From NCBI GenBank assembly GCA_000146465.1, contig CP001949.1: DNA of 64,000 nucleotides; one strand, given 5' to 3'. This document shows positions 1,241-14,130 of the stretch, piece by piece (within the stretch, counting starts at the first letter, position 1; every line of letters begins with the position of its first letter). The translations under genes were made by a program, and so were the position numbers. The notes under the pieces are model-generated. The model saw nothing but the letters and a program-made list of their open reading frames with translations. It made no database searches and was not told the origin of the DNA.

Positions 1241-3628
1241 ATGGAACGGATTAGACTACCACTGAAGCGGCACAAGATCGAGCAAGAGGGAAAAGGCTGG
1301 AGAGGCAGAGAGCAGAAGAAGGTGGATCTGAAACGATTTGTGGAAATGTTTGTCAACCAAGCCTTGAAGGAGATGAAGGAAGCACTTGGGAAATTCCATT
1401 CTATTTCCGAAATAGTGTGCAGAAGGGAATTGAGCGTGTTTTTCAAACAGAAGGCTGCAGACTTTGAATGTTTGTTTCTACTTATAAGTGGAGTTGAGTA
1501 CCTGAAAGAGGCAAATTCAAACAGACATAGGATGGAGAAGATCAAAGATGTAGATGGGGAATATGTGATGATGGCGGATCGACTTGCACATCTGTTTGGA
1601 TCCTTCAAGTCGATGATTGTACCCAAGAGTGATGTCTTTACCTCACTCCAGACGGTTTACAACAGCAGCTATCTTCTTCCAAGTCTTGTTGGAGATAGTA
1701 CTGAGCATGAGGTGGCAAGCTTCGAAGAAATCAATAGAATCACCCGAATGTACTTGGACAAGGAGGATCTGTCTGTTTATGACAGTGTTGTGATTGATCG
1801 AGGTATTACAGTTCTGTCGACCAGATTTTTTTCGTTTAGCCTTGCATTATGTGGAGAGATATCCAGGCCTGAATGGAAACTGATCAATGTCAGGGGAGAT
1901 AACGAGGTCTTCAACCGCCACCTTCTGTTTGGTATGCCCCATCAAATAGACAAGATATCGAGGTTTCTGAGGGTCTATGAGGCACACACGAAGGCCCGGG
2001 ATATATTTCTGATGGTGAAAAGATCTTCCGAGCGCATAGAACTGAGTATAAAGGGCCACTACAAGAGATTTGAGGTTTCTTTTCACGTGTTCAAGATGGC
2101 AGTGCATGTCGAATGCAGCGATATTAACGGGAAGTTGTTTATAGAAGAAGATGTGTTTCCTTCTGGAAAGAATGTGGTAGAGTCGTTTGAAAGTAGAGTT
2201 TCGGAGTATCTCTGCAGGGACGGAAGGAATGCTTCTTTTAGTTTTGAAAAGGGATTTGTAGCTCTTGGAGATGAAGAGATCCAAACCTTCAGAAGTTTTA
2301 CAGACCTAGATGTCTTCTTGGAAAGAAAGAAAGAAAATTCCAGCTTTTATAGCTTTTTTGAGGAAAGATTTCCCTGCTACAGAAACCATAGGACAAACAT
2401 GTTTGGGGATAGAAATGTCTTCATTATAGAAAACGGGCTTTTTGTGTGCATCCGTCTGGTGAGATTTGTAGATAGCCACATGGAGATAAAGGTAATAGTT
2501 GGGAGCTGTGAACTGGTAGACTTTCCGAGTTATACAGAAGTCATCATGGAAGAGGACGATAGAGGAGAGATAGTGGGGATTATAAACGGAGGAAAGGTAA
2601 AGCAATCGACGATCAAGACCGAATCATTGTGCAAATACTTTGAAAAAGGCATGGAGCTTTTGTTTCTTTCCTATAGGCTTCTCCCGATGATCAACGGAAA
2701 GATTAGTGTTGGAGAACAAATCTTGCTGAACCATAGAGTCAAGAATACACAAATTGATATTTATATAGAGAAGAGGGAGGAGAAGTTTATTGTTACAACA
2801 AGCAGATTTGGGGCAAGGACAGCCACAACCTCAGGGGATGTTCATAACTGTGTTGCTTTTGCGTTGCTTCTAATGGATATCTTTACAAGCTCAAAGGATT
2901 CGGAGCTATTGAATGTTATCTCGATTGACCTTTTCAAAGGAACGACGTTGAGAATTTCGGGTCTTCCCGTGTCTCTTAAGCTGGACTGTTCAAAATCCCT
3001 CAAGGCAAGTCCACTGGCTGTGAATTGTGGACTAAGAAACAGTTCTATCCTTGGGGCCCTGGGCCTTCTATACTGTTTCCATGGGTTCTTTTCCAATGGG
3101 CTTGTACCTACAGCTTCCACACCCACAAGTCTGATATTTGTGTTTAGACACCTGTTCAAAGGGCATGTGAAGGTAAAGATGGTTGATAGAACTAAGTACA
3201 TGGTTTCTCTGAATGGAGGTAGAATTAAGGACGCTCTTGGAGGCTTTGGACGTGAGATATCTAGCATGGACACGTCTTTTCCTCGAAAGCTATCTTCCTT
3301 CTACTTCAAGGAAAAGATTGGATTAATATCCGATGTGGCAAGGAAGAGTTATAAAATAACTGCCAGTGAAAGCGAGGTGAGCATTTCAACAGCCTGTGGA
3401 AACTTCAAGATCTATATCGAAGATTGCAGATGTAAATTTCAGATCTGCTCCATCAACACAGTCGAACCAAGCGATCAGTTCATAGAAGCCATCAGCGAGT
3501 ATTTTGGAGAGGCTATGAGTGAAGGAAGAGATATTCCTAGTTGTATAAAGCTTTTAGACAGTTCAGAAGAACTTAAGAGACTGTTTGAAAACATTGAGTC
3601 GAAGAGAAAAGGGAATTACAGTAACTAG
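1241..3628 (+). CDS. Hypothetical 795-aa protein (weak resemblance of the N-terminus to the Mediator Med14/Rgr1 N-domain; not supported further)
   Basis: Long intact ORF with an ATG start; upstream GGATCCACCC motif; no strong family signature. Confidence 0.4.
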   Translation: MERIRLPLKRHKIEQEGKGWRGREQKKVDLKRFVEMFVNQALKEMKEALGKFHSISEIVCRRELSVFFKQKAADFECLFLLISGVEYLKEANSNRHRMEKIKDVDGEYVMMADRLAHLFGSFKSMIVPKSDVFTSLQTVYNSSYLLPSLVGDSTEHEVASFEEINRITRMYLDKEDLSVYDSVVIDRGITVLSTRFFSFSLALCGEISRPEWKLINVRGDNEVFNRHLLFGMPHQIDKISRFLRVYEAHTKARDIFLMVKRSSERIELSIKGHYKRFEVSFHVFKMAVHVECSDINGKLFIEEDVFPSGKNVVESFESRVSEYLCRDGRNASFSFEKGFVALGDEEIQTFRSFTDLDVFLERKKENSSFYSFFEERFPCYRNHRTNMFGDRNVFIIENGLFVCIRLVRFVDSHMEIKVIVGSCELVDFPSYTEVIMEEDDRGEIVGIINGGKVKQSTIKTESLCKYFEKGMELLFLSYRLLPMINGKISVGEQILLNHRVKNTQIDIYIEKREEKFIVTTSRFGARTATTSGDVHNCVAFALLLMDIFTSSKDSELLNVISIDLFKGTTLRISGLPVSLKLDCSKSLKASPLAVNCGLRNSSILGALGLLYCFHGFFSNGLVPTASTPTSLIFVFRHLFKGHVKVKMVDRTKYMVSLNGGRIKDALGGFGREISSMDTSFPRKLSSFYFKEKIGLISDVARKSYKITASESEVSISTACGNFKIYIEDCRCKFQICSINTVEPSDQFIEAISEYFGEAMSEGRDIPSCIKLLDSSEELKRLFENIESKRKGNYSN

Positions 3629-3715: not shown

Positions 3716-4822
3716 TTACACTTCCTCGATGCTGTTGACTGCCAGGGTATCGAATGTATTTCTTCTGCAGAATAGAATATAAAAAATCGAGCCAATGAAC
3801 GAGAAGATAAGGACAACAGCCAACGGGAGAGCAACAAGGACCATCTGGGGCCCAACCCCAAGAACAAGACATACAGTCAAGAGGGTCACAAGCATGCTGA
3901 TGTGTGCAGTAAGAACTCTTTTCCATCCAAGAACCTCTTCGTTTTCATCTTCCGAGGCCGTTTCAAGGAGCGCAAAGAAGTCATTCTGTGTTCTGTCTAT
4001 TTCAAAAAGAAAGTCGTCGTCTGCATCCAGGGTGTTCCTCCGGAAGTACTCTCTGATCTCCGGCTGCATCAGAAAGTCGTCGTCCGAAGCGAAATAGTTG
4101 GCACTGTACATCACGCTTCTTTCTGGAGGAATTGACTTAGGCATAGCTATTGTGCCTTTCTGAATCTTTTCTATGATCTCTCTGGGATTTTCCTCCATGC
4201 TACTTATCTTCAAGGATCGGTCGCTAGCATCGAGACTGTCTCTTGACTTATGACATCTCTTGTTGTCCTCCGATGCCTCTTCTACCTTGTGTCTGAACAC
4301 CTGTGAAAACGCCTTTTTTGTTGTTTTGCCTTCCACCTTGGTTTCTATGAAGAAATACTCAACAAGTGCTCTGTCGACTTCTTGGGGCGGGACTTTGTAA
4401 TAGTAAACCTGCCCTAGTATATACATGTTGTTAAGGGGGTTTCGAACCTTCATTCTGTGCAACAATCTTCTGTCAGACTCAAACCTGAATAGTATCCTAT
4501 TCAATTCTGATGCAGCGTAGTAGAAGTTGTATATGACGCTCTGGTCATCTGGATCTGGAGTTGTGACTCTTGCAAGTATGAAGTCCTTATTCTTCGACCT
4601 GCAGTCCAATACTATTGTTTTGAACTCTTCTAAAGTGAAAGTTTCAACAGTGTTTGCATCCAGTACGTCCAATTCATCGCCTTCTCCATATGCCAGGTTG
4701 TTTGGACCCCCGACTATCCTGATTTTGGATGGCATTCCCTTGGATTTCTCATACAGATCTAGTGTCTCTTTTGCCATCCGGCTTGAACTTGTTTGTAAAC
4801 AAATAAAAATATATTTGGCCAT
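3716..4822 (-). CDS. Tail-anchored membrane protein, family member A (paralogue of 11411..12232); the true start may be the internal ATG at 4777
   Basis: Shares a conserved ~110-aa N-terminal domain (FTLE.FK, KDF, VTT.DP, YYAA.ELNRILF, R.PINN, G.V.YYK) with the ORF at 11411; single C-terminal hydrophobic segment. Confidence 0.45.
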   Translation of the reverse strand: MAKYIFICLQTSSSRMAKETLDLYEKSKGMPSKIRIVGGPNNLAYGEGDELDVLDANTVETFTLEEFKTIVLDCRSKNKDFILARVTTPDPDDQSVIYNFYYAASELNRILFRFESDRRLLHRMKVRNPLNNMYILGQVYYYKVPPQEVDRALVEYFFIETKVEGKTTKKAFSQVFRHKVEEASEDNKRCHKSRDSLDASDRSLKISSMEENPREIIEKIQKGTIAMPKSIPPERSVMYSANYFASDDDFLMQPEIREYFRRNTLDADDDFLFEIDRTQNDFFALLETASEDENEEVLGWKRVLTAHISMLVTLLTVCLVLGVGPQMVLVALPLAVVLIFSFIGSIFYILFCRRNTFDTLAVNSIEEV

Positions 4823-4978
4823 GTGATTAAATTAAAAACAATGGCCTTCCTTCCCTTGCTTGGCGATCCATGCTTCTTTCCTGGAAATACTGTCCATTCG
4901 TGTTCTGGGGAGTTGTAAACCTTTTATTTGCTAATCTGAAACAGACAGTAATAAAAGAAGCTTGACAGTAAACAAAAA

Positions 4979-5572
4979 ATGCCTGGCATCAAGGAGGATA
5001 TGAAGACCTATACATTCAAGATGGTGGTTCTTGGATACTATTCGGTGGGTAAGAGCAGCTTGGTGCTCAAGTATGTCAAGGGGGAGTTCAATCCAAATGA
5101 GGAGAGTACCATAGGTGCATCGTTCTTAACAAAAACTGTTTTTACTCCTGAAGGAAGCATCAAGTTCGAAATATGGGACACTGCAGGCCAGGAAAGATAC
5201 AACAGCCTGATTCCGATGTATTACCGTGGGGCGCAGGTGGCCCTGATAGTTTATGATATAACTTCTGTGGAAAGCTTCGAAACTGCAAAGAGATGGGTTG
5301 AAGAGCTTAGCTTTGAGAAGCCAAGGGAGTTCATCAAGGTTCTGATTGGAAATAAGTCCGATCTAGAGGAAGACCGAAAAGTAGAGTTCCAGCAGGGAAA
5401 GGAATATGCAGATAGTCAAAACCTTCTATTCTTCGAGTCGAGTGCAAAGACAGGAAAAAACATAGCCGAGATATTTAATGCAATTGCAGAGAAAGTTCCA
5501 AAAGAGGAGGTCAAGAAAAACACAAAAGGATTTAGGCTGAGAGATGATTACATAAAATACCTTTGCTGCTGA
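4979..5572 (+). CDS. Rab5/Ypt51-family small GTPase
   Basis: G1 GYYSVGKSS, switch II WDTAGQERY, NKSDL, SAK; C-terminal CC prenylation motif; closest by eye to the Rab5 subfamily. Confidence 0.8.
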   Translation: MPGIKEDMKTYTFKMVVLGYYSVGKSSLVLKYVKGEFNPNEESTIGASFLTKTVFTPEGSIKFEIWDTAGQERYNSLIPMYYRGAQVALIVYDITSVESFETAKRWVEELSFEKPREFIKVLIGNKSDLEEDRKVEFQQGKEYADSQNLLFFESSAKTGKNIAEIFNAIAEKVPKEEVKKNTKGFRLRDDYIKYLCC

Positions 5573-5584
5573 TCTTTATTTACT

Positions 5585-6304
5585 TTAAATGTTTGTAATC
5601 TCGAGGACAGATCTTCTGAGTCTTATGTAAGACTCGATCGATCCACATTTCTCGAGGAACTTCCCTTCATCTAGTGCTTCGCAGAGCAGAGGATCGATTT
5701 TCAGCTCGCATATAAAGCGAACACCCATCTCCATTGCAAGTCTTTCTCCTCCTCTTGCCCCAAATATGTTGGTGGGGTTTCCACAGGACTCGCAGCAGTA
5801 TCCACTCATATTCTCCACAAGCCCGAGAATCTGGATTCCATTAGAAATGCAAAAGTCAATTGCTCTCGAAGAATCTCCTAGGGAGATGTTCTGCGGAGTA
5901 GTGGCAATCAAAACACTAATGTCCTTTCCAACCAGAAATCCATGTTCCTCAGATATTCCTGGAGGCATATCAATCACTACGTTATCAAAGCCATCGGCCG
6001 ATTCATAGAACATCGATAATACAGACATCTTCTTTGGACCTCTCCATATCACAGAGTCACTTTCCTTCATAAGCAAAGCCATCGAAAGTATGTACAAGTT
6101 CTCAGATGCTTTGGCCGGAATCAATCCCTTCTCTCCTTTGTATATCTTTTCCTTAATCCCAAGTCCACTAGCCACACTTGGCCCACACAGATCAAAGTCC
6201 AACAGCAGTGTCTTTCCTCTTTCGGACATCGCCGTGCTCAGCATGATAGAGATCGAGCTTTTTCCAACTCCTCCCTTACCACTCATAACAGCCACCATGA
6301 CCAT
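5585..6304 (-). CDS. Cfd1/Nbp35-type (Mrp/NBP35 family) P-loop ATPase, cytosolic Fe-S cluster assembly
   Basis: MSGKGGVGKS deviant Walker A at the N-terminus; C-terminal CxxC-type cysteines (GYCCESCG); ATG preceded by a CCCC run; convergent with the Rab gene at a 12-bp spacing. Confidence 0.7.
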   Translation of the reverse strand: MVMVAVMSGKGGVGKSSISIMLSTAMSERGKTLLLDFDLCGPSVASGLGIKEKIYKGEKGLIPAKASENLYILSMALLMKESDSVIWRGPKKMSVLSMFYESADGFDNVVIDMPPGISEEHGFLVGKDISVLIATTPQNISLGDSSRAIDFCISNGIQILGLVENMSGYCCESCGNPTNIFGARGGERLAMEMGVRFICELKIDPLLCEALDEGKFLEKCGSIESYIRLRRSVLEITNI

Positions 6305-6328
6305 ACAAGGGGTGCCCCAATCAGTCTA

Positions 6329-6937
6329 TCATTCAATTTCTTCCGACTCATTTACAGACGCCAGTTTCTTCACAAATACTCTTTCCTTCCTTTTCACTAC
6401 AGGCAATCTTCTTGGCTTGGCTGTTGGAAGTAGTATAGAGGGAAACTCCTTGATGTTATGCACCTTTGCATTAGGCCTGTCTTGGAATTTTATCTTTCTT
6501 TTCCGTCTTCTACTTATGTGCTCTGGACATCTGCTTTCTCCATCAAACACAAGAACAACATATCTGTATCCAGAATTCTTGAGAGTATTCTTTTCAACAA
6601 TTTCCTTCATACATTTTTTTTTTGTTCCCTTTGCATGACCATTCGAGTCCTTCTTGGCTAACGGATCTTTCCCCTTCCTCATTTGGTATCCAACAGACAC
6701 TTTTCTTTTCCTAATCGTCCCATCTTCTACAAGCTTTGCTTCCTTTTTCTTTCTAGGCTTCCTTCTTTTAAAAGCCCCGAAGCCCAACTCAGTCTTATTT
6801 TCTTCGAGCCTCTTCGCCATTCCCCTTTTCAATATCTCACTTCGGAGTCCGATGTTGTTTAGTAGTGAGTATTCCCTATTTAGAAGATACATATCTATCT
6901 CCCTCTTAGAAGGCCTTCCTATAAATATTTCATCCAT
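6329..6937 (-). CDS. Basic lysine/arginine-rich hypothetical protein (nucleolar-type composition)
   Basis: ORF downstream of ERCC4 on the same strand; first in-frame ATG (MDEIF) at 6937 overlaps the last codons of ERCC4; an alternative ATG lies at 6892. Confidence 0.3.
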   Translation of the reverse strand: MDEIFIGRPSKREIDMYLLNREYSLLNNIGLRSEILKRGMAKRLEENKTELGFGAFKRRKPRKKKEAKLVEDGTIRKRKVSVGYQMRKGKDPLAKKDSNGHAKGTKKKCMKEIVEKNTLKNSGYRYVVLVFDGESRCPEHISRRRKRKIKFQDRPNAKVHNIKEFPSILLPTAKPRRLPVVKRKERVFVKKLASVNESEEIE

Positions 6938-9116
6938 CAATTTCCTCCCCTGCTTTGGCTTTTGTTTTATTCTCTCCTCCGCCCTCCTGCCTGAAGAAGT
7001 TGTATATAAGAACACCATTCTCTCTCCCAAGAGTCAACTCAAGGCGATCCATGCTGGAGAATATGAGGTCCTTCAGGCTCTTGAAACATTTTCGAACCTT
7101 TAGGATGTTGAACTGTGTTATTCCAGGAATACTCAGAAGTATCTCATGGAGGACGGGGTCCATCTTATGCCTTTCAGAAACACTTGGTACATCTTCCTTC
7201 CTCTGAAGATCTCTTATCACCTTTGTGGAAAATAGTCTTGACTCAGACCAGATAACCCTCAGCATTCCGAAGTTAAACAGAAGCAAGGCAAACTTTGCTG
7301 CAATGCTGTTTTTGAATGTGTCCTGGTCATAGCGGTAGTGGTCAGACAGACATGGCCTTCCATCAAACTCAAGGAGGAGAACAGGGCTTGGATACCTGTG
7401 GCATAGCATGCTCATCTGAGAATAAAGCCTTCCTGTCCCTAGAGATGATATAAAGTCGGAGATCGATTTTCTTTCGATGCAGATTGTGGGCCCTATTAGG
7501 TAATCTCCAGTGGGAAGAGTGGAAATGCATATCTTGTTTCTTGCCCTGAACAGAAAGAAGGGAAGTTCGGCTCTTAGCTCCCTGGAGTCAACCACAACCG
7601 TGTAGTCCTTCTCTCCCGACTCATGCTCCTCTAGATCAATCACATCCTCCCCATCCAATTGCAAAGGAAGTCTTGATCTCTCTTCTATGAGCTTTTCAAA
7701 CGATGTCTTTTCTCTTCTTATCTCATTCAAGTATCTTTGTTCCTCTAGAGACGAGGAGTGCATAAGGAAAAACACTTTAACAGGATGCATCACCCTGTAT
7801 CTTTCTATCTTCCTAACGCTGTCCTGCCCAGATTCTACAAAAATCACATTCTCATAACTGCTCTCGTAATACTTGAACTCGTAGTGGGTCAAGATCTTTA
7901 CTGTGTTCTCCTTCTTTTCAATACTCTCGACAGAGACTAGACCAAACACAACAAAAACATTTAAGATCATGTTCCTGACTGCACGGTTGGAAACTAATAC
8001 TATCGACGATGCCTCTCCTAACTCCTGCAGAATCTCTATCAATTTCTTGATCTTTGGATTCAAGGTATAGAAGGCTCTTAACTTGGAATCGGAAAGTCCC
8101 AAGAGAGATTCCAGTTCATTCTTCTCATTTCTCTTTTCCTTCTGCTCCCTAATATCTTCTATTTTTTGGATTGCTTCTTCAAACTGTTCTCTGGCTCCAT
8201 CAATTAGTACATGAGATATTGGTAGATTGATCCATGTGCTATCCTTTCCAAGTTCTACTTGCTTCTTTACAATTTCCTTGACATATCCATAGAACGATCC
8301 TGGATCGCAAGAAAACAGCAGAAAAATCAATCCACGTATGTCATACAGATCCTCCATTATCCTGCTGTTCAAAACGTTCATCTGCTTGAATGTCTTGCGG
8401 ATACTTCCAAATATTATGGCCTCTGCATCCACCTCCTCTCGATCAGGACCTCTGAAGGCCATTTTCAGAAGCCCGTTGATGATCTCCAAAAGAATCACTT
8501 GGAGATGACTGCGGCTCTCCGACATTTTGAACTTGATCTCAACAACATCTGCATCCCCTTTCAAGGACTTCTCGACCGAGGAATGGAATCGTGGGAAAAA
8601 AACAACCTTGTTCATCTTCAGGCTTTTCATCTTCCTGGCTAGCGGAGAGAACCCAAGAGAAAGAGGCACAGGCGACTCCGAAAACCCGTTTATGAATCCT
8701 GTTTTATTCTTTGATCTGAAGACATGGCTGATGAAGGACTCCAGCGATGTCTCTGTTACTGTCTCTGCATGGTTGACAAGAATGCAATCTATTTTCTCAA
8801 CATCCACTGTGCCGTCAATCATGTCTGCAAGAAATACACGGCTACTTGCAATAAACACTCCTCCATTGAGATACTTTTCTCTCCTTCTTGTCCTTGGCAA
8901 AGTTCTTACATCATGAAGGAAAGGAGACTCCATCCTCAGAAGCATCGATTCGTCCTCTGTATTGAAATTCACCAGAAGCACAAGATAGGTCTTCTCCAGA
9001 TACTTCTTTACCACCTCCAAAATTATCCCTTGGATGTTAAGGCCTCCCCCCATTACAAGAAGGCTGTTTTGTCCGTCGCATGTTTGAAGTGCTTCTTTCT
9101 CGTACTCCAAGAGCAT
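6930..9116 (-). CDS. XPF/ERCC4 (Rad1) structure-specific endonuclease
   Basis: N-terminus MLLEYEK aligns with the XPF start (LLEYE...); helicase-like domain; C-terminal ERCC4 nuclease motifs (ERKS.SDF..S...GRL..Q) and a tandem HhH; the track ORF extends to 9581 but residues upstream of M156 are non-homologous and overlap Rpb4 on the other strand. Confidence 0.8.
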   Translation of the reverse strand: MLLEYEKEALQTCDGQNSLLVMGGGLNIQGIILEVVKKYLEKTYLVLLVNFNTEDESMLLRMESPFLHDVRTLPRTRRREKYLNGGVFIASSRVFLADMIDGTVDVEKIDCILVNHAETVTETSLESFISHVFRSKNKTGFINGFSESPVPLSLGFSPLARKMKSLKMNKVVFFPRFHSSVEKSLKGDADVVEIKFKMSESRSHLQVILLEIINGLLKMAFRGPDREEVDAEAIIFGSIRKTFKQMNVLNSRIMEDLYDIRGLIFLLFSCDPGSFYGYVKEIVKKQVELGKDSTWINLPISHVLIDGAREQFEEAIQKIEDIREQKEKRNEKNELESLLGLSDSKLRAFYTLNPKIKKLIEILQELGEASSIVLVSNRAVRNMILNVFVVFGLVSVESIEKKENTVKILTHYEFKYYESSYENVIFVESGQDSVRKIERYRVMHPVKVFFLMHSSSLEEQRYLNEIRREKTSFEKLIEERSRLPLQLDGEDVIDLEEHESGEKDYTVVVDSRELRAELPFFLFRARNKICISTLPTGDYLIGPTICIERKSISDFISSLGTGRLYSQMSMLCHRYPSPVLLLEFDGRPCLSDHYRYDQDTFKNSIAAKFALLLFNFGMLRVIWSESRLFSTKVIRDLQRKEDVPSVSERHKMDPVLHEILLSIPGITQFNILKVRKCFKSLKDLIFSSMDRLELTLGRENGVLIYNFFRQEGGGENKTKAKAGEEIDG

Positions 9117-9171
9117 TTTGGGATTAGAAGATGACATGCTCAAGTGAGAGATATTTTCAAGCCCTAAATCG

Positions 9172-9534
9172 ATGGAAATCGATGAGTGTGCTGAGGATAT
9201 AAAAGACTCCCATCCAGTTATGCTTGCCGAGGCAAGATATTTGCTTGAAGGACAGAAAGAAAGATTCCGAGCAGATTTTAGATCGAATGCATCGAAGATA
9301 TTTAGATCAACATTAGGATATTTGGACGAGTTCTGCAGGATTAAAGACAAGTCGGTTGCAGAAGACCTCCGAACAACCTTTTCTGGATTAGGGTTCAGCG
9401 AGGTTGAGATAGCCTTGCTTGGATCCCTATTCCCCCAGTCTGTTGAGGAGGCCAAGTCACTCATTCCATCTCTGGCGTCTAAGGATGATGACACAATCAG
9501 CCATGCTGTTGAGAAGATACAGCAGCTTATGTGA
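9172..9534 (+). CDS. RNA polymerase II subunit Rpb4
   Basis: 120 aa; C-terminal half FPQSVEEAKSLIPSL...EKIQ matches the Rpb4/HRDC-like signature (CPET.EEAKALIPSL...IQ); ATG preceded by GCCCTAAATCG. Confidence 0.6.
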   Translation: MEIDECAEDIKDSHPVMLAEARYLLEGQKERFRADFRSNASKIFRSTLGYLDEFCRIKDKSVAEDLRTTFSGLGFSEVEIALLGSLFPQSVEEAKSLIPSLASKDDDTISHAVEKIQQLM

Positions 9535-9610
9535 TGAGCTTTGGAAGGAAGGAAAGACACTATTAAATTCTTAAGACCCAAATACCATGTAAATTCTTGA
9601 AGTACAACCC

Positions 9611-10519
9611 ATGGAAGGAAAGTGTTGGATATCTCTTCGTACGGAAGAAGCCATTGACCTGGAGCTGACCTTGTTCAGTGGACAAGTGTTTTCATTCAAG
9701 AGGACGGGAGAGAAGGAATATACTGGGGTGCTGGGAGAATGTCTGGTGAGTTTTTTGCAAGATGGAAGTAGGGTCCTCTACAAGGTGCTCAGCGGAAAAA
9801 GGTCTCCAAAGGAAGTTGAGGAGGATATTTTTTATTTCTTTACATTAGATATAAAGCTCAAGCCTCTTCTGGAGAAATGGAAGGTTGATTCTGACGGCCT
9901 CCTAAACGGCTTAAGGGCTCTCCGATACGATCTAATTCCAACGATATTTTCGTTTATCTGCTCGTCCAACAACAACATTTCCAGAATAACAAGGATGGTC
10001 GAGTTTCTTTATTCAAAGGGAGAGTTTATCATGAAGTATAAGGGGATTGACTTCCATCGCTTTCCAAGCCTGGAGGAGTTGGTAAGCATTGAAGGAGAAC
10101 TCAAAGCTAAAGGGTTTGGGTACAGATCTTCATACATCTGCAATGCAGCAACATATCTACAAGAGAACTATTCCAAGCTACAGCAAAGGTCTAGAATCAG
10201 GGAGGCATTGGTTTCGATCAAGGGCGTTGGAGAGAAGATAGCCGATTGCATTTTGTTGATAGGTGTTGGCGAGCTGAGTGCTGTTCCTATTGACACACAT
10301 ATTTTCAAGCATTCTAAGAAGATGTTTAGAATCCATGGAAAGACATTGACTCGGAGGGCATATGGAGCTGTGCAGGAACTGTATAAAGAGAAGTTTGGGG
10401 AATATGCAGGGATAGCACAGCTCTATATATTTAAGAGGATGGTCGACCAGGCAAAGAAGAGGCAAAGAGGCATCGATAGGTTTGGACATCTTGGAATGTT
10501 GGATGAAAAGAAGAAGTAA
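9611..10519 (+). CDS. OGG1: 8-oxoguanine DNA glycosylase OGG1
   Basis: N-terminal OGG domain (L.L.L.SGQ.F.W); HhH-GPD with the catalytic region (KGVG.K.ADCILL...VPIDTH); ATG preceded by ACCC. Confidence 0.75.
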   Translation: MEGKCWISLRTEEAIDLELTLFSGQVFSFKRTGEKEYTGVLGECLVSFLQDGSRVLYKVLSGKRSPKEVEEDIFYFFTLDIKLKPLLEKWKVDSDGLLNGLRALRYDLIPTIFSFICSSNNNISRITRMVEFLYSKGEFIMKYKGIDFHRFPSLEELVSIEGELKAKGFGYRSSYICNAATYLQENYSKLQQRSRIREALVSIKGVGEKIADCILLIGVGELSAVPIDTHIFKHSKKMFRIHGKTLTRRAYGAVQELYKEKFGEYAGIAQLYIFKRMVDQAKKRQRGIDRFGHLGMLDEKKK

Positions 10520-10533
10520 AAGGACTCCCCTTG

Positions 10534-11301
10534 ATGAAATGGGATGTGGACAAAGAGTATTCGACTAACGAACCTCAAGAAGAGGTAAAGAGAGTCAAGA
10601 GGGCTATTGAGGGCATGGATGTCAAACCTATGGAGTCTGGTAGGGTCTCCTTAACAGCAGAAGAAAATGGGGTTGAAGGCCATGATCTGAACTTCAAGAG
10701 GCAGGTTAAGAAGAAGGTGAACGATTACAAGTACAAGACCCTTTACAACGTTGGGAAAACAAAGAATCCATATGCTCTCACACGTAATAGTGTGGTGATA
10801 GCCATGGAAGAGGAGCTAGGGGTGGAGATCCTTGTCAAGGGAAGTTACAAGCCAGAAGAGCTGAATGGAGACACAGACGATTCGGATGGGCTGGTGTATG
10901 AGATCTCGGCCCCGACGCCCGAGATCCTCCAGGAAGCAATGTTCAAAATTCCATCTATGGTCAAGACTGTGCCTGTGCTCCCATGGACCTCGTCCAGTAT
11001 CTTGGGAAGATATGTCTGGAAAAACGGCACCCGGTACCATTCGTACAGGATTTTTGTAGATCCTGACGATTTATCGGGGAAGATGAATGAGTTCCGCAAG
11101 GACATAGAAGCGGTTGCAGCCGATAAATCGGTAGACATTGCCATTAGAGGAAAGTTTTCTGGGCATGTGGAGCCATGCTTTGGTCAGGAGGCGAATGAGC
11201 CTCCATATATTCAAATACTAACAAAAACCAAGAAGGAAATAAGAGAAGTAAGAAAGGCATGCAGGGAAGTGATCTCCAAGCACAGCGAAATTTCTGGATA
11301 G
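10534..11301 (+). CDS. Hypothetical protein (possibly KH-like RNA-binding)
   Basis: The track start at 10531 is a TTG; the first ATG at 10534 is preceded by CTCCCCTTG; starts only 14 bp after the OGG1 stop. Confidence 0.4.
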   Translation: MKWDVDKEYSTNEPQEEVKRVKRAIEGMDVKPMESGRVSLTAEENGVEGHDLNFKRQVKKKVNDYKYKTLYNVGKTKNPYALTRNSVVIAMEEELGVEILVKGSYKPEELNGDTDDSDGLVYEISAPTPEILQEAMFKIPSMVKTVPVLPWTSSSILGRYVWKNGTRYHSYRIFVDPDDLSGKMNEFRKDIEAVAADKSVDIAIRGKFSGHVEPCFGQEANEPPYIQILTKTKKEIREVRKACREVISKHSEISG

Positions 11302-11410
11302 ATTTCTGGACTTTTGGAAGGGATTACTTCTCCCGAAGATGATTTGATATCTCAATTGGAATTCTGAAACACGATTGCTATAAAGGTAATTTGTTTATGA
11401 AGTGAATCCA

Positions 11411-12232
11411 ATGGACAGCAACGTGGCGGAAGTAGTTCTGAAAGGCCGATCCAGGATCGTATTTGGCGGGGAAGATTCCGGCCTACCGCTCTACACTCTT
11501 GATACGGAGGTTGTAGAGGCCTTTACTCTGGAAAGGTTTAAGGAGCTGATTGCCTCCAATGTTAAGGAAGGAAAGGACTTTGTAGTTGGGGAGGTGACTA
11601 CAAGGGATCCTCCAACGGGTTCAATCTTTAAGAACTACTATGCTGCAGTTGAACTGAACAGAATCCTCTTTTGTGTAGAGGGCCGTAACAACCTTTTGTA
11701 CAGGGTAATAGCTAGGAATCCAATAAACAACCTTGAGATTGAAGGAAAAGTCTTGTATTACAAGATAACATGGAAAGCTCTGTCCAGCGCCGTGGAGAAA
11801 AGGCATTCTTCCAAGGACGAGTTTCTGATAAAAGCAGACTACTTTGCTAATGATGAGGATCTGCTTTTTGATCCATCGGTTAGAAGATACTTTGCCAAGA
11901 ACTTTGCAGATGAAGAGTATTTCGTGCATCGACTCGAGAATATGGAAAGCCCAATGGTGATCTCGGAGGATCCGTTAGAAGGCTACCGCGATGACAAATT
12001 CGGGCTTAAGATCATACTCTACACAAACATAGGGACTATATTGGTTGTATTTGGAATGTGTATCCTCCTTGGGTCCAGAGAGGCTTTTTTTGTTGCAATT
12101 GCCCCTCTTTCAATGACACTCCTCTTTTCAATCCTCTTCCTTGTCCTCTACGCCTTGCTTTTCGAGGCTCCAGAGGGCCTTTCTTCGATATTCAACTTCC
12201 GAAAAACTAGATTTAGATACGAAAGCAGTTAA
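11411..12232 (+). CDS. Tail-anchored membrane protein, family member B (paralogue of 3716..4822)
   Basis: The track start at 11402 is a GTG; first ATG at 11411; conserved N-domain shared with member A; C-terminal TM segment. Confidence 0.45.
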   Translation: MDSNVAEVVLKGRSRIVFGGEDSGLPLYTLDTEVVEAFTLERFKELIASNVKEGKDFVVGEVTTRDPPTGSIFKNYYAAVELNRILFCVEGRNNLLYRVIARNPINNLEIEGKVLYYKITWKALSSAVEKRHSSKDEFLIKADYFANDEDLLFDPSVRRYFAKNFADEEYFVHRLENMESPMVISEDPLEGYRDDKFGLKIILYTNIGTILVVFGMCILLGSREAFFVAIAPLSMTLLFSILFLVLYALLFEAPEGLSSIFNFRKTRFRYESS

Positions 12233-12294: not shown

Positions 12295-12708
12295 TTATTT
12301 TTTCTTCTTTGTCTTTTTCTTCCTAACAAGATTAAGCTTATTCTCAACATACACGCCCTTCTGAACAACTCCATGCACCACCTTTCCATGGGCCTGCTTT
12401 CCTGAAGAAACACTGCCCCCACTTCTTGCAGAGGATCTCATCTCTGCAATCGTTTGGCTTACTCCCTCTACAACAAACAGTTTTCCATACTCCTTTTTAA
12501 TCCGGAACCTTCCATTGTTGAAGAAGTCTCGAGGATGCTTCTTCAAAGGCTCTTCGACACATTCGATTTCAAGTTTTTCCAAGGCATTTTTGATTTCATG
12601 GTATCGAGGCTTCTCAATGCAAATCTCTTTTCTATACTTCCTTCCCTCCGAAAGCGCCCTGGATGAATCCATGTAGGCAGGATACAAGCAGAAGTACTTG
12701 TTCTCCAT
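12295..12708 (-). CDS. SRP19: Signal recognition particle SRP19
   Basis: FCLYPAYMDSSRALSEGRKYRKE matches the SRP19 core (F.CIYPAY....T.AEGRR); lysine-rich tail; the track start at 12765 is a TTG; the ATG at 12708 is preceded by CCCC. Confidence 0.65.
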   Translation of the reverse strand: MENKYFCLYPAYMDSSRALSEGRKYRKEICIEKPRYHEIKNALEKLEIECVEEPLKKHPRDFFNNGRFRIKKEYGKLFVVEGVSQTIAEMRSSARSGGSVSSGKQAHGKVVHGVVQKGVYVENKLNLVRKKKTKKKK

Positions 12709-13038
12709 CAAGGGGAAGTTTTCTGGAAAATTATAATTGAGGTTTCTCTGCAAAATCCTTTCCAAGCTTCCTATCTAGCCTACCATTTTCAATCCTGGTC
12801 CATAAATCGACTTTGTTTACACCCTTTAATGTTGTCAAAGTCATTAGAGCCTTTCTTTGAAATGCCATCAGCATCAGGTACGGCAATATACATTGCCTGC
12901 TGATTTGTTGTCTTGGCATTTCTTAATATCTTCTATGCACACGAGTATCATTCCAAGGTTACAAAGCATATCACAAAGAAAATAGAAAACATCTTTATCC
13001 AAGCTCTTGTGTTATGCTTTTTAAACGGCATTCCAAAG

Positions 13039-14130
13039 ATGATTCTGATGGTAAATTTGTATAGAACCTTCCCCATACAGGTGTTTGCGTCGGCCATTTC
13101 AGGTACCACTCAAATCTCCATTGCAATATCTCTCGCTCTTGTTTTGATATTTGCCAAGACAAATTGTTTTGTCCACCATATAAGCTTCTATAAGGATGTC
13201 CTCTTTCTTGAAGCCTCCCATCTGCTTCTACTGATAATGTTCTCGAACACGGCAGATACTCTAACAATTCCAATTATGACCTTGAGTGTGTTCTTTGCCT
13301 TTCTGTTCAACACTTTCTCTCTGCCTGCATATATCTCGCAGGTACCGGCAGAAGCCCAGGACACCGTCTCTTCCCATCCTCAAGCTCCGCATCCATCCCT
13401 TGGCCTATACCCCATCCGATTCATATTCAACACCATCTTTCTGGACCCAGACCAGCTGTCTTCGTCCTCAAAGAAAACATCATATACAATCATGCTTTCT
13501 CCGGCGATCAGCCTTCTAGTAGGCATGGTACACTTTCGCATAGACATCGGACGCCTTGAATTCCTTCTTTCTCTTATCTGCTCCTTCTTTGCAGGCTTGC
13601 TTTTATACATGATGATAAGAAAAAGGATCTTCTCCACAATTTCATGTCTCTACACCTTGGCTGTTTCCATGCTCTTTTTCTCGATAATAATGGAAAATCT
13701 TGTGGATCTTACCGTTCGCATCAGCAATGCAACAGGATTAGGAATTCAGCTTCTTTCCGGTACGTTTCTTTCACTCCAATCAAATCTTACGGAAATAGTA
13801 ACATGTCTTAAATACAAGGGAAATGAGATGTTGACTGTGTCGTCTTGCTCCATCCTCTACACGCACATATTCAATGCTCTTCTCTTCTTTCCTACCATCC
13901 GGTTGCTACTGACCAAAGACGGGATCCTCCCTCATTCACAAAACATCTCCAATGCTCCCTTTGTATACTTTTCATATGTCTTTATCCTTGCTGAAATCAA
14001 AGTAATCTTTGTAAACTACCTCCTCAGACACCACAAGCTGACAAAGGACCTTGGGTACACACTCATAGCAATATATGCATTATTCATCATCGGATTTGCC
14101 ATAGAAGGTAAGGAGCATCTTTGTAAATAA
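13039..14130 (+). CDS. Multi-pass membrane protein, unknown family; 5' end uncertain
   Basis: Long hydrophobic ORF; the track start at 12913 is a TTG; the first in-frame ATG is at 13039, although the upstream in-frame segment looks coding (an upstream exon cannot be excluded). Confidence 0.35.
   Translation: MILMVNLYRTFPIQVFASAISGTTQISIAISLALVLIFAKTNCFVHHISFYKDVLFLEASHLLLLIMFSNTADTLTIPIMTLSVFFAFLFNTFSLPAYISQVPAEAQDTVSSHPQAPHPSLGLYPIRFIFNTIFLDPDQLSSSSKKTSYTIMLSPAISLLVGMVHFRIDIGRLEFLLSLICSFFAGLLLYMMIRKRIFSTISCLYTLAVSMLFFSIIMENLVDLTVRISNATGLGIQLLSGTFLSLQSNLTEIVTCLKYKGNEMLTVSSCSILYTHIFNALLFFPTIRLLLTKDGILPHSQNISNAPFVYFSYVFILAEIKVIFVNYLLRHHKLTKDLGYTLIAIYALFIIGFAIEGKEHLCK

Follow-up and report, generated by a model that had tools for sequence, protein, structure and literature searches.

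We focused on a pair of membrane protein genes in a 64,000-nucleotide stretch of DNA (contig CP001949.1 of GenBank assembly GCA_000146465.1; referred to as the window here), for which an earlier reading of the letters, the original prediction, had proposed two related genes on opposite strands. The window is part of chromosome VIII of Encephalitozoon intestinalis, a microsporidian with a compact genome, given that the plus-strand gene (called P2 here) is Eint_080750 and the minus-strand gene (P1) corresponds to EROM_080680 of E. romaleae (95% identity) and ECU08_0720 of E. cuniculi (90% identity). P2 is in addition the ortholog of ECU08_0790. Both open reading frames lie where the original prediction had placed them, with one correction: the ATG at position 4822, which opens the longest reading frame of P1, is missing from E. 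hellem, E. romaleae, and Ordospora, and the true start is the methionine encoded at 4777, which is used by all orthologs. The two genes and their parts are listed below, with positions in the window and, in parentheses, the basis of each assignment (pLDDT, predicted local distance difference test of AlphaFold2).

3716-4777, minus strand: P1, conserved DUF5092 gene, 353 amino acids plus stop (open reading frame, Pfam PF17010, orthologs of 353 amino acids)
4349-4729, minus strand: P1 residues 17-143, N-part of the split domain (pLDDT mostly 87-96)
4121-4330, minus strand: P1 residues 150-219, insert within the domain (pLDDT below 50 at 150-193; gap in P2)
3992-4120, minus strand: P1 residues 220-262, C-part of the split domain, strand plus helices, YFASDDDFLMQPEIREYFRRN (AlphaFold2, invariant residues)
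3767-3916, minus strand: P1 residues 288-337, predicted two-helix membrane hairpin (hydropathy, AlphaFold2)
3719-3766, minus strand: P1 residues 338-353, conserved tail RRNTFDTLAVNSIEEV-COOH, predicted to be cytosolic (motif counts in orthologs)
11411-12232, plus strand: P2, fast-evolving DUF5092 paralog, 273 amino acids plus stop (100% identity to Eint_080750 over the full 273 amino acids)
11444-11905, plus strand: P2 residues 12-165, complete compact DUF5092 domain (AlphaFold2 model of residues 1-185)
12011-12163, plus strand: P2 residues 201-251, predicted two-helix membrane hairpin (two hydropathy peaks)

As had been proposed, P1 and P2 are true paralogs, and both are membrane proteins. 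The two proteins are only about 33% identical, their pairwise alignment spans the whole length (BLASTP E=8e-31), and both match the Pfam family PF17010 (DUF5092) far above its gathering cutoff of 27 bits, P1 with 183.6 bits (E=2.7e-54, profile positions 1-145) and P2 with 116.5 bits (E=1.3e-33, profile positions 1-144). Every homolog examined also matches PF17010, and a six-frame scan of the 64-kb window with the hidden Markov model (HMM) of the family found no DUF5092 copy besides P1 and P2. The sequence blocks on which the pairing had been built are all present (RIVGG/RIVFGG, FTLE.FK, KDF..VTT.DP, YYAA.ELNRILF, RNP.NN, and G.V.YYK). The shared region had been described as an N-terminal domain of about 110 amino acids; similarity is indeed found there, but it is not confined to it, since a second conserved block, YFA[SN]D[DE]D[FL]L..P.[IV]R.YF..N, is common to both proteins and the hydrophobic C termini align as well. 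The domain had also been regarded as unplaceable in any family, whereas a profile search assigns it to DUF5092, for which Pfam gives no role. The accompanying statement that it is not an obvious SNARE, VAP/MSP, cytochrome b5, or longin domain agrees with our searches, in which no fold or sequence match to these was found; relatives conserve both genes strongly, and no ubiquitous characterized family was found for them. Given that DUF5092 is already catalogued and that published Encephalitozoon genomes list both genes as hypothetical proteins, no new kind of element was discovered here: P1 and P2 are functional genes of the DUF5092 family.

The domain architecture was examined with AlphaFold2. 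The full-length model of P1, built with 48 homologs, is confident for residues 17-143 and for a strand and helices within 222-257. The N-part carries the motifs FTLE, KDFILARVTT.DP, YYAAsELNRILF, LLHRMKVRNPLNNM, and GqVYYYK. It is followed by the insert, in which residues 150-193 are predicted to be disordered and a helix at 198-207 leads into an ordered stretch that continues into the C-part, where a strand at 222-231 precedes the helices (pLDDT 84-95 over residues 211-250). In P2, the N-part (residues 12-130) and the C-part (137-165) are joined directly, without an insert, and the model of residues 1-185 (pLDDT 86.6; predicted template modeling score, 0.83) places the strand at 137-147 (pLDDT 95) in one compact model with the strands of the N-part. 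On the basis of the two models and of the direct junction in P2, DUF5092 is predicted to be one split α/β globular domain, with the C-part folding back onto the N-part and a variable loop between them. Its length ranges from 0 amino acids in P2 through about 70 in P1, where it is partly disordered, to several hundred in homologs from chytrids and Mortierella. The Pfam model covers both parts with one domain of 145 positions, of which P1 and P2 are full members; the architecture described here differs from it in that the parts are interrupted by a loop of variable length and are always coupled to a C-terminal two-helix hairpin.

To define the most conserved positions, invariance was scored over 46 to 48 sequences that included both paralogs as well as Rozella, chytrid, and Mortierella homologs. 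Twelve residues, most of them polar, are invariant throughout the family, namely, the F-T of FTLE, followed by Y, N, R, N-P-x-N-N, Y, D, and F (in P1, F47, T48, Y87, N93, R108, N113, P114, N116, N117, and Y126, plus D234 and F245). P2 retains all 12. No column of these alignments holds an invariant Cys or His.

C terminal of the domain, P1 contains about 50 continuous hydrophobic residues (Kyte-Doolittle windows above 1.6 from residue 287 to 339) with a G-x-G-P turn that is conserved as G-x-x-P, which suggests a hairpin of two transmembrane helices (approximately 288-306 and 312-337) around the turn GVGPQ (307-311). Two long helices, 280-306 and 310-352, are also seen in the AlphaFold2 model. 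The corresponding helices of P2 are predicted at 201-220 and 225-251, with the turn GSRE between them. When family members with both domain parts were counted, 191 of the 240 had at least 38 hydrophobic C-terminal residues, and the second helix is followed by a charged tail of 16 to 22 residues. The single C-terminal transmembrane helix of a tail-anchored protein, as originally predicted, is thus replaced by a predicted two-helix hairpin with a tail. Outside the C-terminal region, no hydropathy window of P1 or P2 exceeds 1.6, so that neither shows an N-terminal signal sequence, and the hairpin of P1 is bordered by basic residues at both outer ends (WKR before the first helix and RR after the second). 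Because of the missing N-terminal hydrophobic segment and these basic residues, we infer that the domain and the C-terminal tail would both face the cytosol, with only the short turn lying beyond the membrane.

Two short elements distinguish P1 from P2. The tail of P1 contains F-D-x-L-A-V in 83 of 88 microsporidian P1 orthologs, and in 66 of the 88 it ends in an acidic-then-hydrophobic C terminus; its consensus is F-D-x-L-A-V-x-S-(V/I)-(D/E)-(D/E)-(V/I/L/M)-COOH, with VEEV, EDEL, and VEDV as the commonest endings. A motif comparison found this conserved tail in neither P2 nor the fungal homologs. Its role may lie in sorting or in the binding of a partner, and we take its acidic, hydrophobic-ended C terminus to resemble signals of the type used for export from the endoplasmic reticulum (ER). 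The second element, KKAFSQVFR (window positions 4250-4276, residues ∼168-176), lies in the disordered part of the loop; its consensus, (R/K)(K/R)AFSA(V/I)FR, is found in 57 of the 88 orthologs and is absent from P2. Presumably, it resembles a phosphorylation site of basophilic kinases.

To gain an idea about the distribution of the family, we searched 1.84 billion representative proteins with the HMM. This yielded 565 clusters (taken at 50% identity) with E values of 1e-3 or less, of which 223 had E values of 1e-30 or less; a further search with a diverse alignment was dominated by low-complexity sequence and gave 15 matches, with Mitosporidium as the sole named addition. P1-type proteins occur in all major microsporidian groups, including Nematocida, the metchnikovellid Amphiamblys, and Mitosporidium, and beyond them DUF5092 reaches Rozella, Chytridiomycota (Boothiomyces, Synchytrium, Spizellomyces, with SPPG_05789 of S. 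punctatus, and Blyttiomyces), Blastocladiomycota (Paraphysoderma), and Mortierellomycota. Among the named matches that were looked up, which amount to a partial census, none came from Dikarya, animals, or plants. A single DUF5092 copy is present at each of the five outgroup loci examined (Vairimorpha, Vittaforma, Nosema, Glugoides, and Nematocida). P2-type proteins, in contrast, were found only in Encephalitozoon, Ordospora, and a few relatives, and their clusters are few; E. intestinalis, E. hellem, E. romaleae, E. cuniculi, and two Ordospora species each carry an intact P2 at the syntenic position. P1 is the ancestral single-copy ortholog, present across Microsporidia and in early-diverging fungi, and P2 is an extra copy confined to the Encephalitozoon/Ordospora lineage. 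Given the occurrence in early-diverging fungi and the single copies at the outgroup loci, the family is neither specific to microsporidia nor expanded, in contrast to the lineage-specific expansion suggested originally; the only expansion is the one extra copy in Encephalitozoon and Ordospora.

One long homolog, P0143 of Mortierella polycephala (1,658 amino acids), has its DUF5092 region fused to a reprolysin/disintegrin (ADAM-type) metalloprotease, probably as a result of two adjacent genes having been merged by gene prediction. Apart from this case, no co-occurring Pfam domain was found in the long homologs.

The selective constraint on both paralogs was estimated as the ratio of nonsynonymous to synonymous substitution rates (dN/dS) by the Nei-Gojobori method, comparing E. 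hellem with E. romaleae (loci L007 and L008) and including genes of the same region:

P1: 0.013
UBC (ubiquitin-conjugating enzyme): 0.011
Rab5-like: 0.032
CAF1: 0.034
RPL4: 0.040
RPS4: 0.083
P2: 0.109
OGG1: 0.098
KH protein: 0.116
SRP19: 0.151

P1 is under extreme purifying selection, with a constraint at the level of the ubiquitin-conjugating (E2) enzyme and stronger than that on the Rab5-like, RPL4, and RPS4 genes of the same region. Its C-part, hairpin, and tail contain zero nonsynonymous changes between the two species. The protein sequence of P2 evolves about eight times faster than that of P1, and its dN/dS lies within the range of ordinary genes, which marks P2 as a real gene maintained by purifying selection. 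Constraint within P2 is strongest in its hairpin (dN/dS of 0.03 versus 0.15 for the domain). The constraint on the hairpin in both paralogs suggests that it is more than a passive anchor.

The gene order around the pair provides the evidence for its origin. Two further stretches of the window are concerned here:

4979-11301, genes on both strands: gene block between the inverted paralogs (Pfam assignments, gene order)
12295-14130: SRP19 (minus strand) and a 405-amino-acid multi-pass membrane protein (plus strand), the ancestral right-hand neighbors, beside P2 (Pfam SRP19, homology)

The block contains a Rab5-like gene, an NUBP/ParA-type ATPase, an unnamed gene of about 205 amino acids, an ERCC4 nuclease, Rpb4, OGG1, and a KH protein, and the neighboring open reading frames of the window, which also include RPL4, are ordinary housekeeping genes. 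This layout is exactly matched in Ordospora colligata, E. hellem, and E. romaleae, where it reads P1(−), Rab5-like(+), NUBP(−), ERCC4(−), Rpb4(+), OGG1(+), KH(+), P2(+), SRP19(−), a membrane protein of 405 to 435 amino acids, and RPL4. Microsporidia with a single DUF5092 gene (P) have a different order: OGG1 ... ERCC4(+) ... NUBP(+) Rab(−) P(+) 430-amino-acid protein(−) ... SRP19(−) RPL4(−) in Vittaforma, NUBP(+) Rab(−) P(+) 425-amino-acid protein(−) in Glugoides, Rab(−) P(+) 428-amino-acid protein(+) in Nematocida, and P(+) ... 414- or 426-amino-acid protein(−) SRP19(−) in Vairimorpha necatrix and Nosema granulosis. The 405-amino-acid protein of E. intestinalis is homologous to the DUF5092 neighbor of N. 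granulosis (E=1.5e-30) and of V. necatrix (E=3e-22). Judged by the gene order of these single-copy microsporidia, Encephalitozoon and Ordospora carry the Rab5-to-OGG1 block in reverse orientation with respect to the SRP19 side, with an oppositely oriented DUF5092 copy at each end. P1 retains the divergently transcribed Rab5-like neighbor, and P2 retains the SRP19 side, a pattern that points to a coupled duplication and inversion.

In the scenario proposed here, the ancestral gene would have stood between a block of Rab5-like, NUBP, ERCC4, Rpb4, and OGG1 genes and a block of SRP19, membrane protein, and RPL4 genes; the first block would then have been inverted and the gene at the breakpoint duplicated in inverted orientation. 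The cause may have been staggered breaks; alternatively, an inverted duplication may have come first, with recombination between its two copies afterwards. A staggered-break model with inverted duplications at the breakpoints was reportedly put forward for Drosophila inversions by Ranz et al. in PLoS Biology in 2007. The present locus resembles the Drosophila breakpoint duplications in that the inverted segment is flanked by opposite copies, each with one ancestral neighbor. It differs from the Drosophila case in that the event is old, the copies have diverged to the identity given above, no nucleotide-level inverted repeat remains, and the recombination alternative would give the same picture. 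A search for a nucleotide-level inverted repeat between P1 and P2 returned only short chance matches; with an old event and no surviving repeat, the breakpoint mechanism cannot be read from the DNA.

Several observations were made on the genes around the pair. The 795-amino-acid open reading frame at 1241-3628 (plus strand), at the left flank of the inverted block, has no Pfam match and is kept in position and length in E. hellem (788 amino acids), E. romaleae (795), and Ordospora (864). The divergent Rab5-like/DUF5092 pair is kept from Nematocida to Encephalitozoon; this was seen around 4778-4978 in the window and, in other loci, at L006 9342-11020, L003 9005-11065, and L005 8130-11065. Directly ahead of the P1 start, E. 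intestinalis, E. hellem, and E. romaleae have in common a nearly unchanged stretch of about 45 nucleotides (AAATAT..ATTTTTATTTGTTTACAAACAAGTTCAAGCCGG), despite near-saturated synonymous sites; it may be a shared promoter or 5′ untranslated region element. Within the block, a basic open reading frame of 233 amino acids between NUBP and ERCC4 (6329-7030, minus strand), annotated with 202 to 208 amino acids and belonging to no Pfam family, is present in E. hellem and E. romaleae and is weakly similar to both ends of a 406-amino-acid N. granulosis protein at the same position. The ERCC4 reading frame (6930-9581, minus strand, 883 amino acids) is overextended at its 5′ end, as its relatives have 733 to 768 amino acids, and the extension overlaps the 120-amino-acid Rpb4 gene on the opposite strand (9172-9534, plus strand). 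On the SRP19 side, the 405-amino-acid protein (12913-14130, plus strand) has only a subthreshold Pfam match to Na_Ca_ex; a gene of 414 to 430 amino acids stands beside DUF5092 in other microsporidia, with homology to the 405-amino-acid protein confirmed for V. necatrix and N. granulosis only.

An inversion-coupled origin of P2 competes with an ancient duplication at the base of the microsporidia, after which P2 would have been lost outside Encephalitozoon and Ordospora and the present neighbors would be coincidental. In a neighbor-joining tree, the P2 clade is monophyletic in 200 of 200 bootstrap replicates and lies inside the microsporidia in 180 of 200. The same tree speaks for an ancient origin, in that P2 falls outside the canonical microsporidian P1 clade in 148 of 200 replicates and never groups with the P1 of Encephalitozoon and Ordospora. 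We attribute this placement to long-branch attraction, given that P2 evolves so much faster than P1, the classic setting of this artifact, and that it is absent from the five outgroup loci and from the named matches outside Encephalitozoon and Ordospora. An ancient duplication would moreover require many independent losses, with the few P2-type clusters seen, and each copy keeps one ancestral neighbor around the inverted block, as expected from a single local event; taken together, we regard it as improbable. The idea that P2 is a decaying or spurious open reading frame has practically nothing left to recommend it. Conservation is far weaker in P2 than in P1, and neither the loop insert nor the C-terminal tail has survived there, but P2 is intact and syntenic in the Encephalitozoon and Ordospora species named above, it keeps every family-invariant residue, and its dN/dS of 0.11 equals that of neighboring housekeeping genes. 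Conservation, synteny, and dN/dS together refute this reading.

Other alternatives concern what the proteins are. Classical tail-anchored proteins, such as Sec61-β, cytochrome b5, and SNAREs, are clients of the GET/TRC40 pathway, inserted posttranslationally by a single C-terminal helix that leaves their C terminus in the lumen. DUF5092 proteins resemble them in having no signal peptide, a predicted cytosolic N-terminal domain, and a hydrophobic region at the extreme C terminus, and 17 of the 240 members, some of them perhaps truncated gene models, have only one helix-sized hydrophobic stretch. The long hydrophobic region of P1 with its conserved turn, the two hydropathy peaks of P2, the two modeled helices, the hydrophobic length in the large majority of members, and the charged tail in place of a very short lumenal end all argue for two helices instead, making a tail anchor very unlikely. 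Two C-terminal transmembrane helices behind a cytosolic domain are known from the E3 ligases RNF5 and RNF185 and from the TMEM55/PIP4P phosphatases, which share the sequence of globular domain, linker, and helical hairpin with DUF5092; this is an analogy of layout only, as DUF5092 has no RING zinc ligand, CX5R motif, or profile similarity to the U-box, and the structural comparison with PDB gave no significant match. A degenerate, zinc-free RING/U-box-like domain that transfers ubiquitin or recruits an E2 enzyme from such an anchor is extremely unlikely, given that the alignment has no invariant Cys or His, that hhalign against a U-box alignment gives a probability of 0.2%, and that no Pfam RING or U-box match appears at E values up to 10. 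An enzyme held at the membrane, with the invariant T/Y/N/R/N-P-x-N-N/Y/D set as the active site for a polar substrate such as a sugar or a lipid head group, would fit the mostly polar invariant residues shared from Microsporidia to chytrids, the very low dN/dS typical of enzymes, and a domain held near the membrane. However, DUF5092 has no invariant Cys, Ser, or His nucleophile and no metal-binding set, neither fold nor profile comparisons linked it to an enzyme in PDB or Pfam, and the near-invariant His of LLHRMK is Tyr in P2, so that we consider an enzyme unlikely.

The best explanation overall, which we hold to be probably correct, is that P1 and P2 are a hairpin-anchored pair of DUF5092 proteins, that the pair arose by an inversion-coupled duplication, and that the domain may serve as a binding module. 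Confidence in the descriptive part is high; confidence in the functional part is low. Several points weigh against this explanation. The tree position of P2, if taken at face value, implies an older duplication, and the left flank in the inversion model, where the 795-amino-acid gene should stand beside the OGG1/KH end in outgroups, is an expectation only. Cytosolic orientation and hairpin topology are predictions, the hairpin may be monotopic and not span the membrane, and the spatial clustering of the invariant residues in the model is an assumption. The confident DUF5092 model has no relative in PDB: a structural comparison, made against PDB only, gave no significant match, and the family profile run against PDB chains gave membrane-helix noise only (LptF, E of 0.45 or more), leaving no fold or profile relative as a biochemical handle. 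Pfam scans of both proteins and 35 diverse members at E values up to 10 likewise found no recurrent second family. Literature searches for DUF5092, PF17010, IPR031530, and the Encephalitozoon or Vittaforma locus tags returned no paper on them, and the name “Golgi protein” carried by UniRef entries is a bare label for which no experimental basis was found. In the Encephalitozoon telomere-to-telomere, V. necatrix annotation, and E. hellem cross-linking mass spectrometry supplements and in the main text of the Vittaforma annotation, DUF5092, PF17010, and the locus tags are not mentioned; one “Golgi protein” in the V. necatrix supplement could not be linked to DUF5092.

Under the explanation favored here, the proteins would sit in an endomembrane, with the hairpin keeping both the globular domain and the tail on its cytosolic side. 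There, the domain could act as an adaptor or receptor module that binds through the invariant T, Y, N, R, N-P-x-N-N, Y, and D residues, as opposed to an enzyme with a classical nucleophile. Since the hairpin itself is constrained in sequence, specific contacts inside the membrane are probable, whether by self-association, by association of P1 with P2, or with another partner, although we assign low confidence to this step as to the two before it. The loop motif and the acidic-then-hydrophobic C terminus of P1 may add regulation and sorting, both of which P2 would have lost. A bolder version, which we put forward tentatively and consider doubtful, is that DUF5092 is a new fold marking a hitherto unrecognized, essential endomembrane component common to Microsporidia and early-diverging fungi, with P1 as a hairpin-anchored receptor that binds conserved partners through its cytosolic domain as well as its hairpin, and P2 as a lineage-specific regulator or heteromeric partner within the same machinery.

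If this is true, P1, with its constraint at the level of the ubiquitin-conjugating enzyme, would be a pan-microsporidian essential gene without a host counterpart. The family represents an unusually strong “conserved unknown,” and given that it is common to Microsporidia and early-diverging fungi, with no named homolog seen from Dikarya or animals in the partial census, it is a candidate for a parasite-specific essential gene and possibly an evolutionary marker. The P1/P2 pair, in turn, would provide a tidy case of inversion-coupled gene duplication in one of the most compact eukaryotic genomes.

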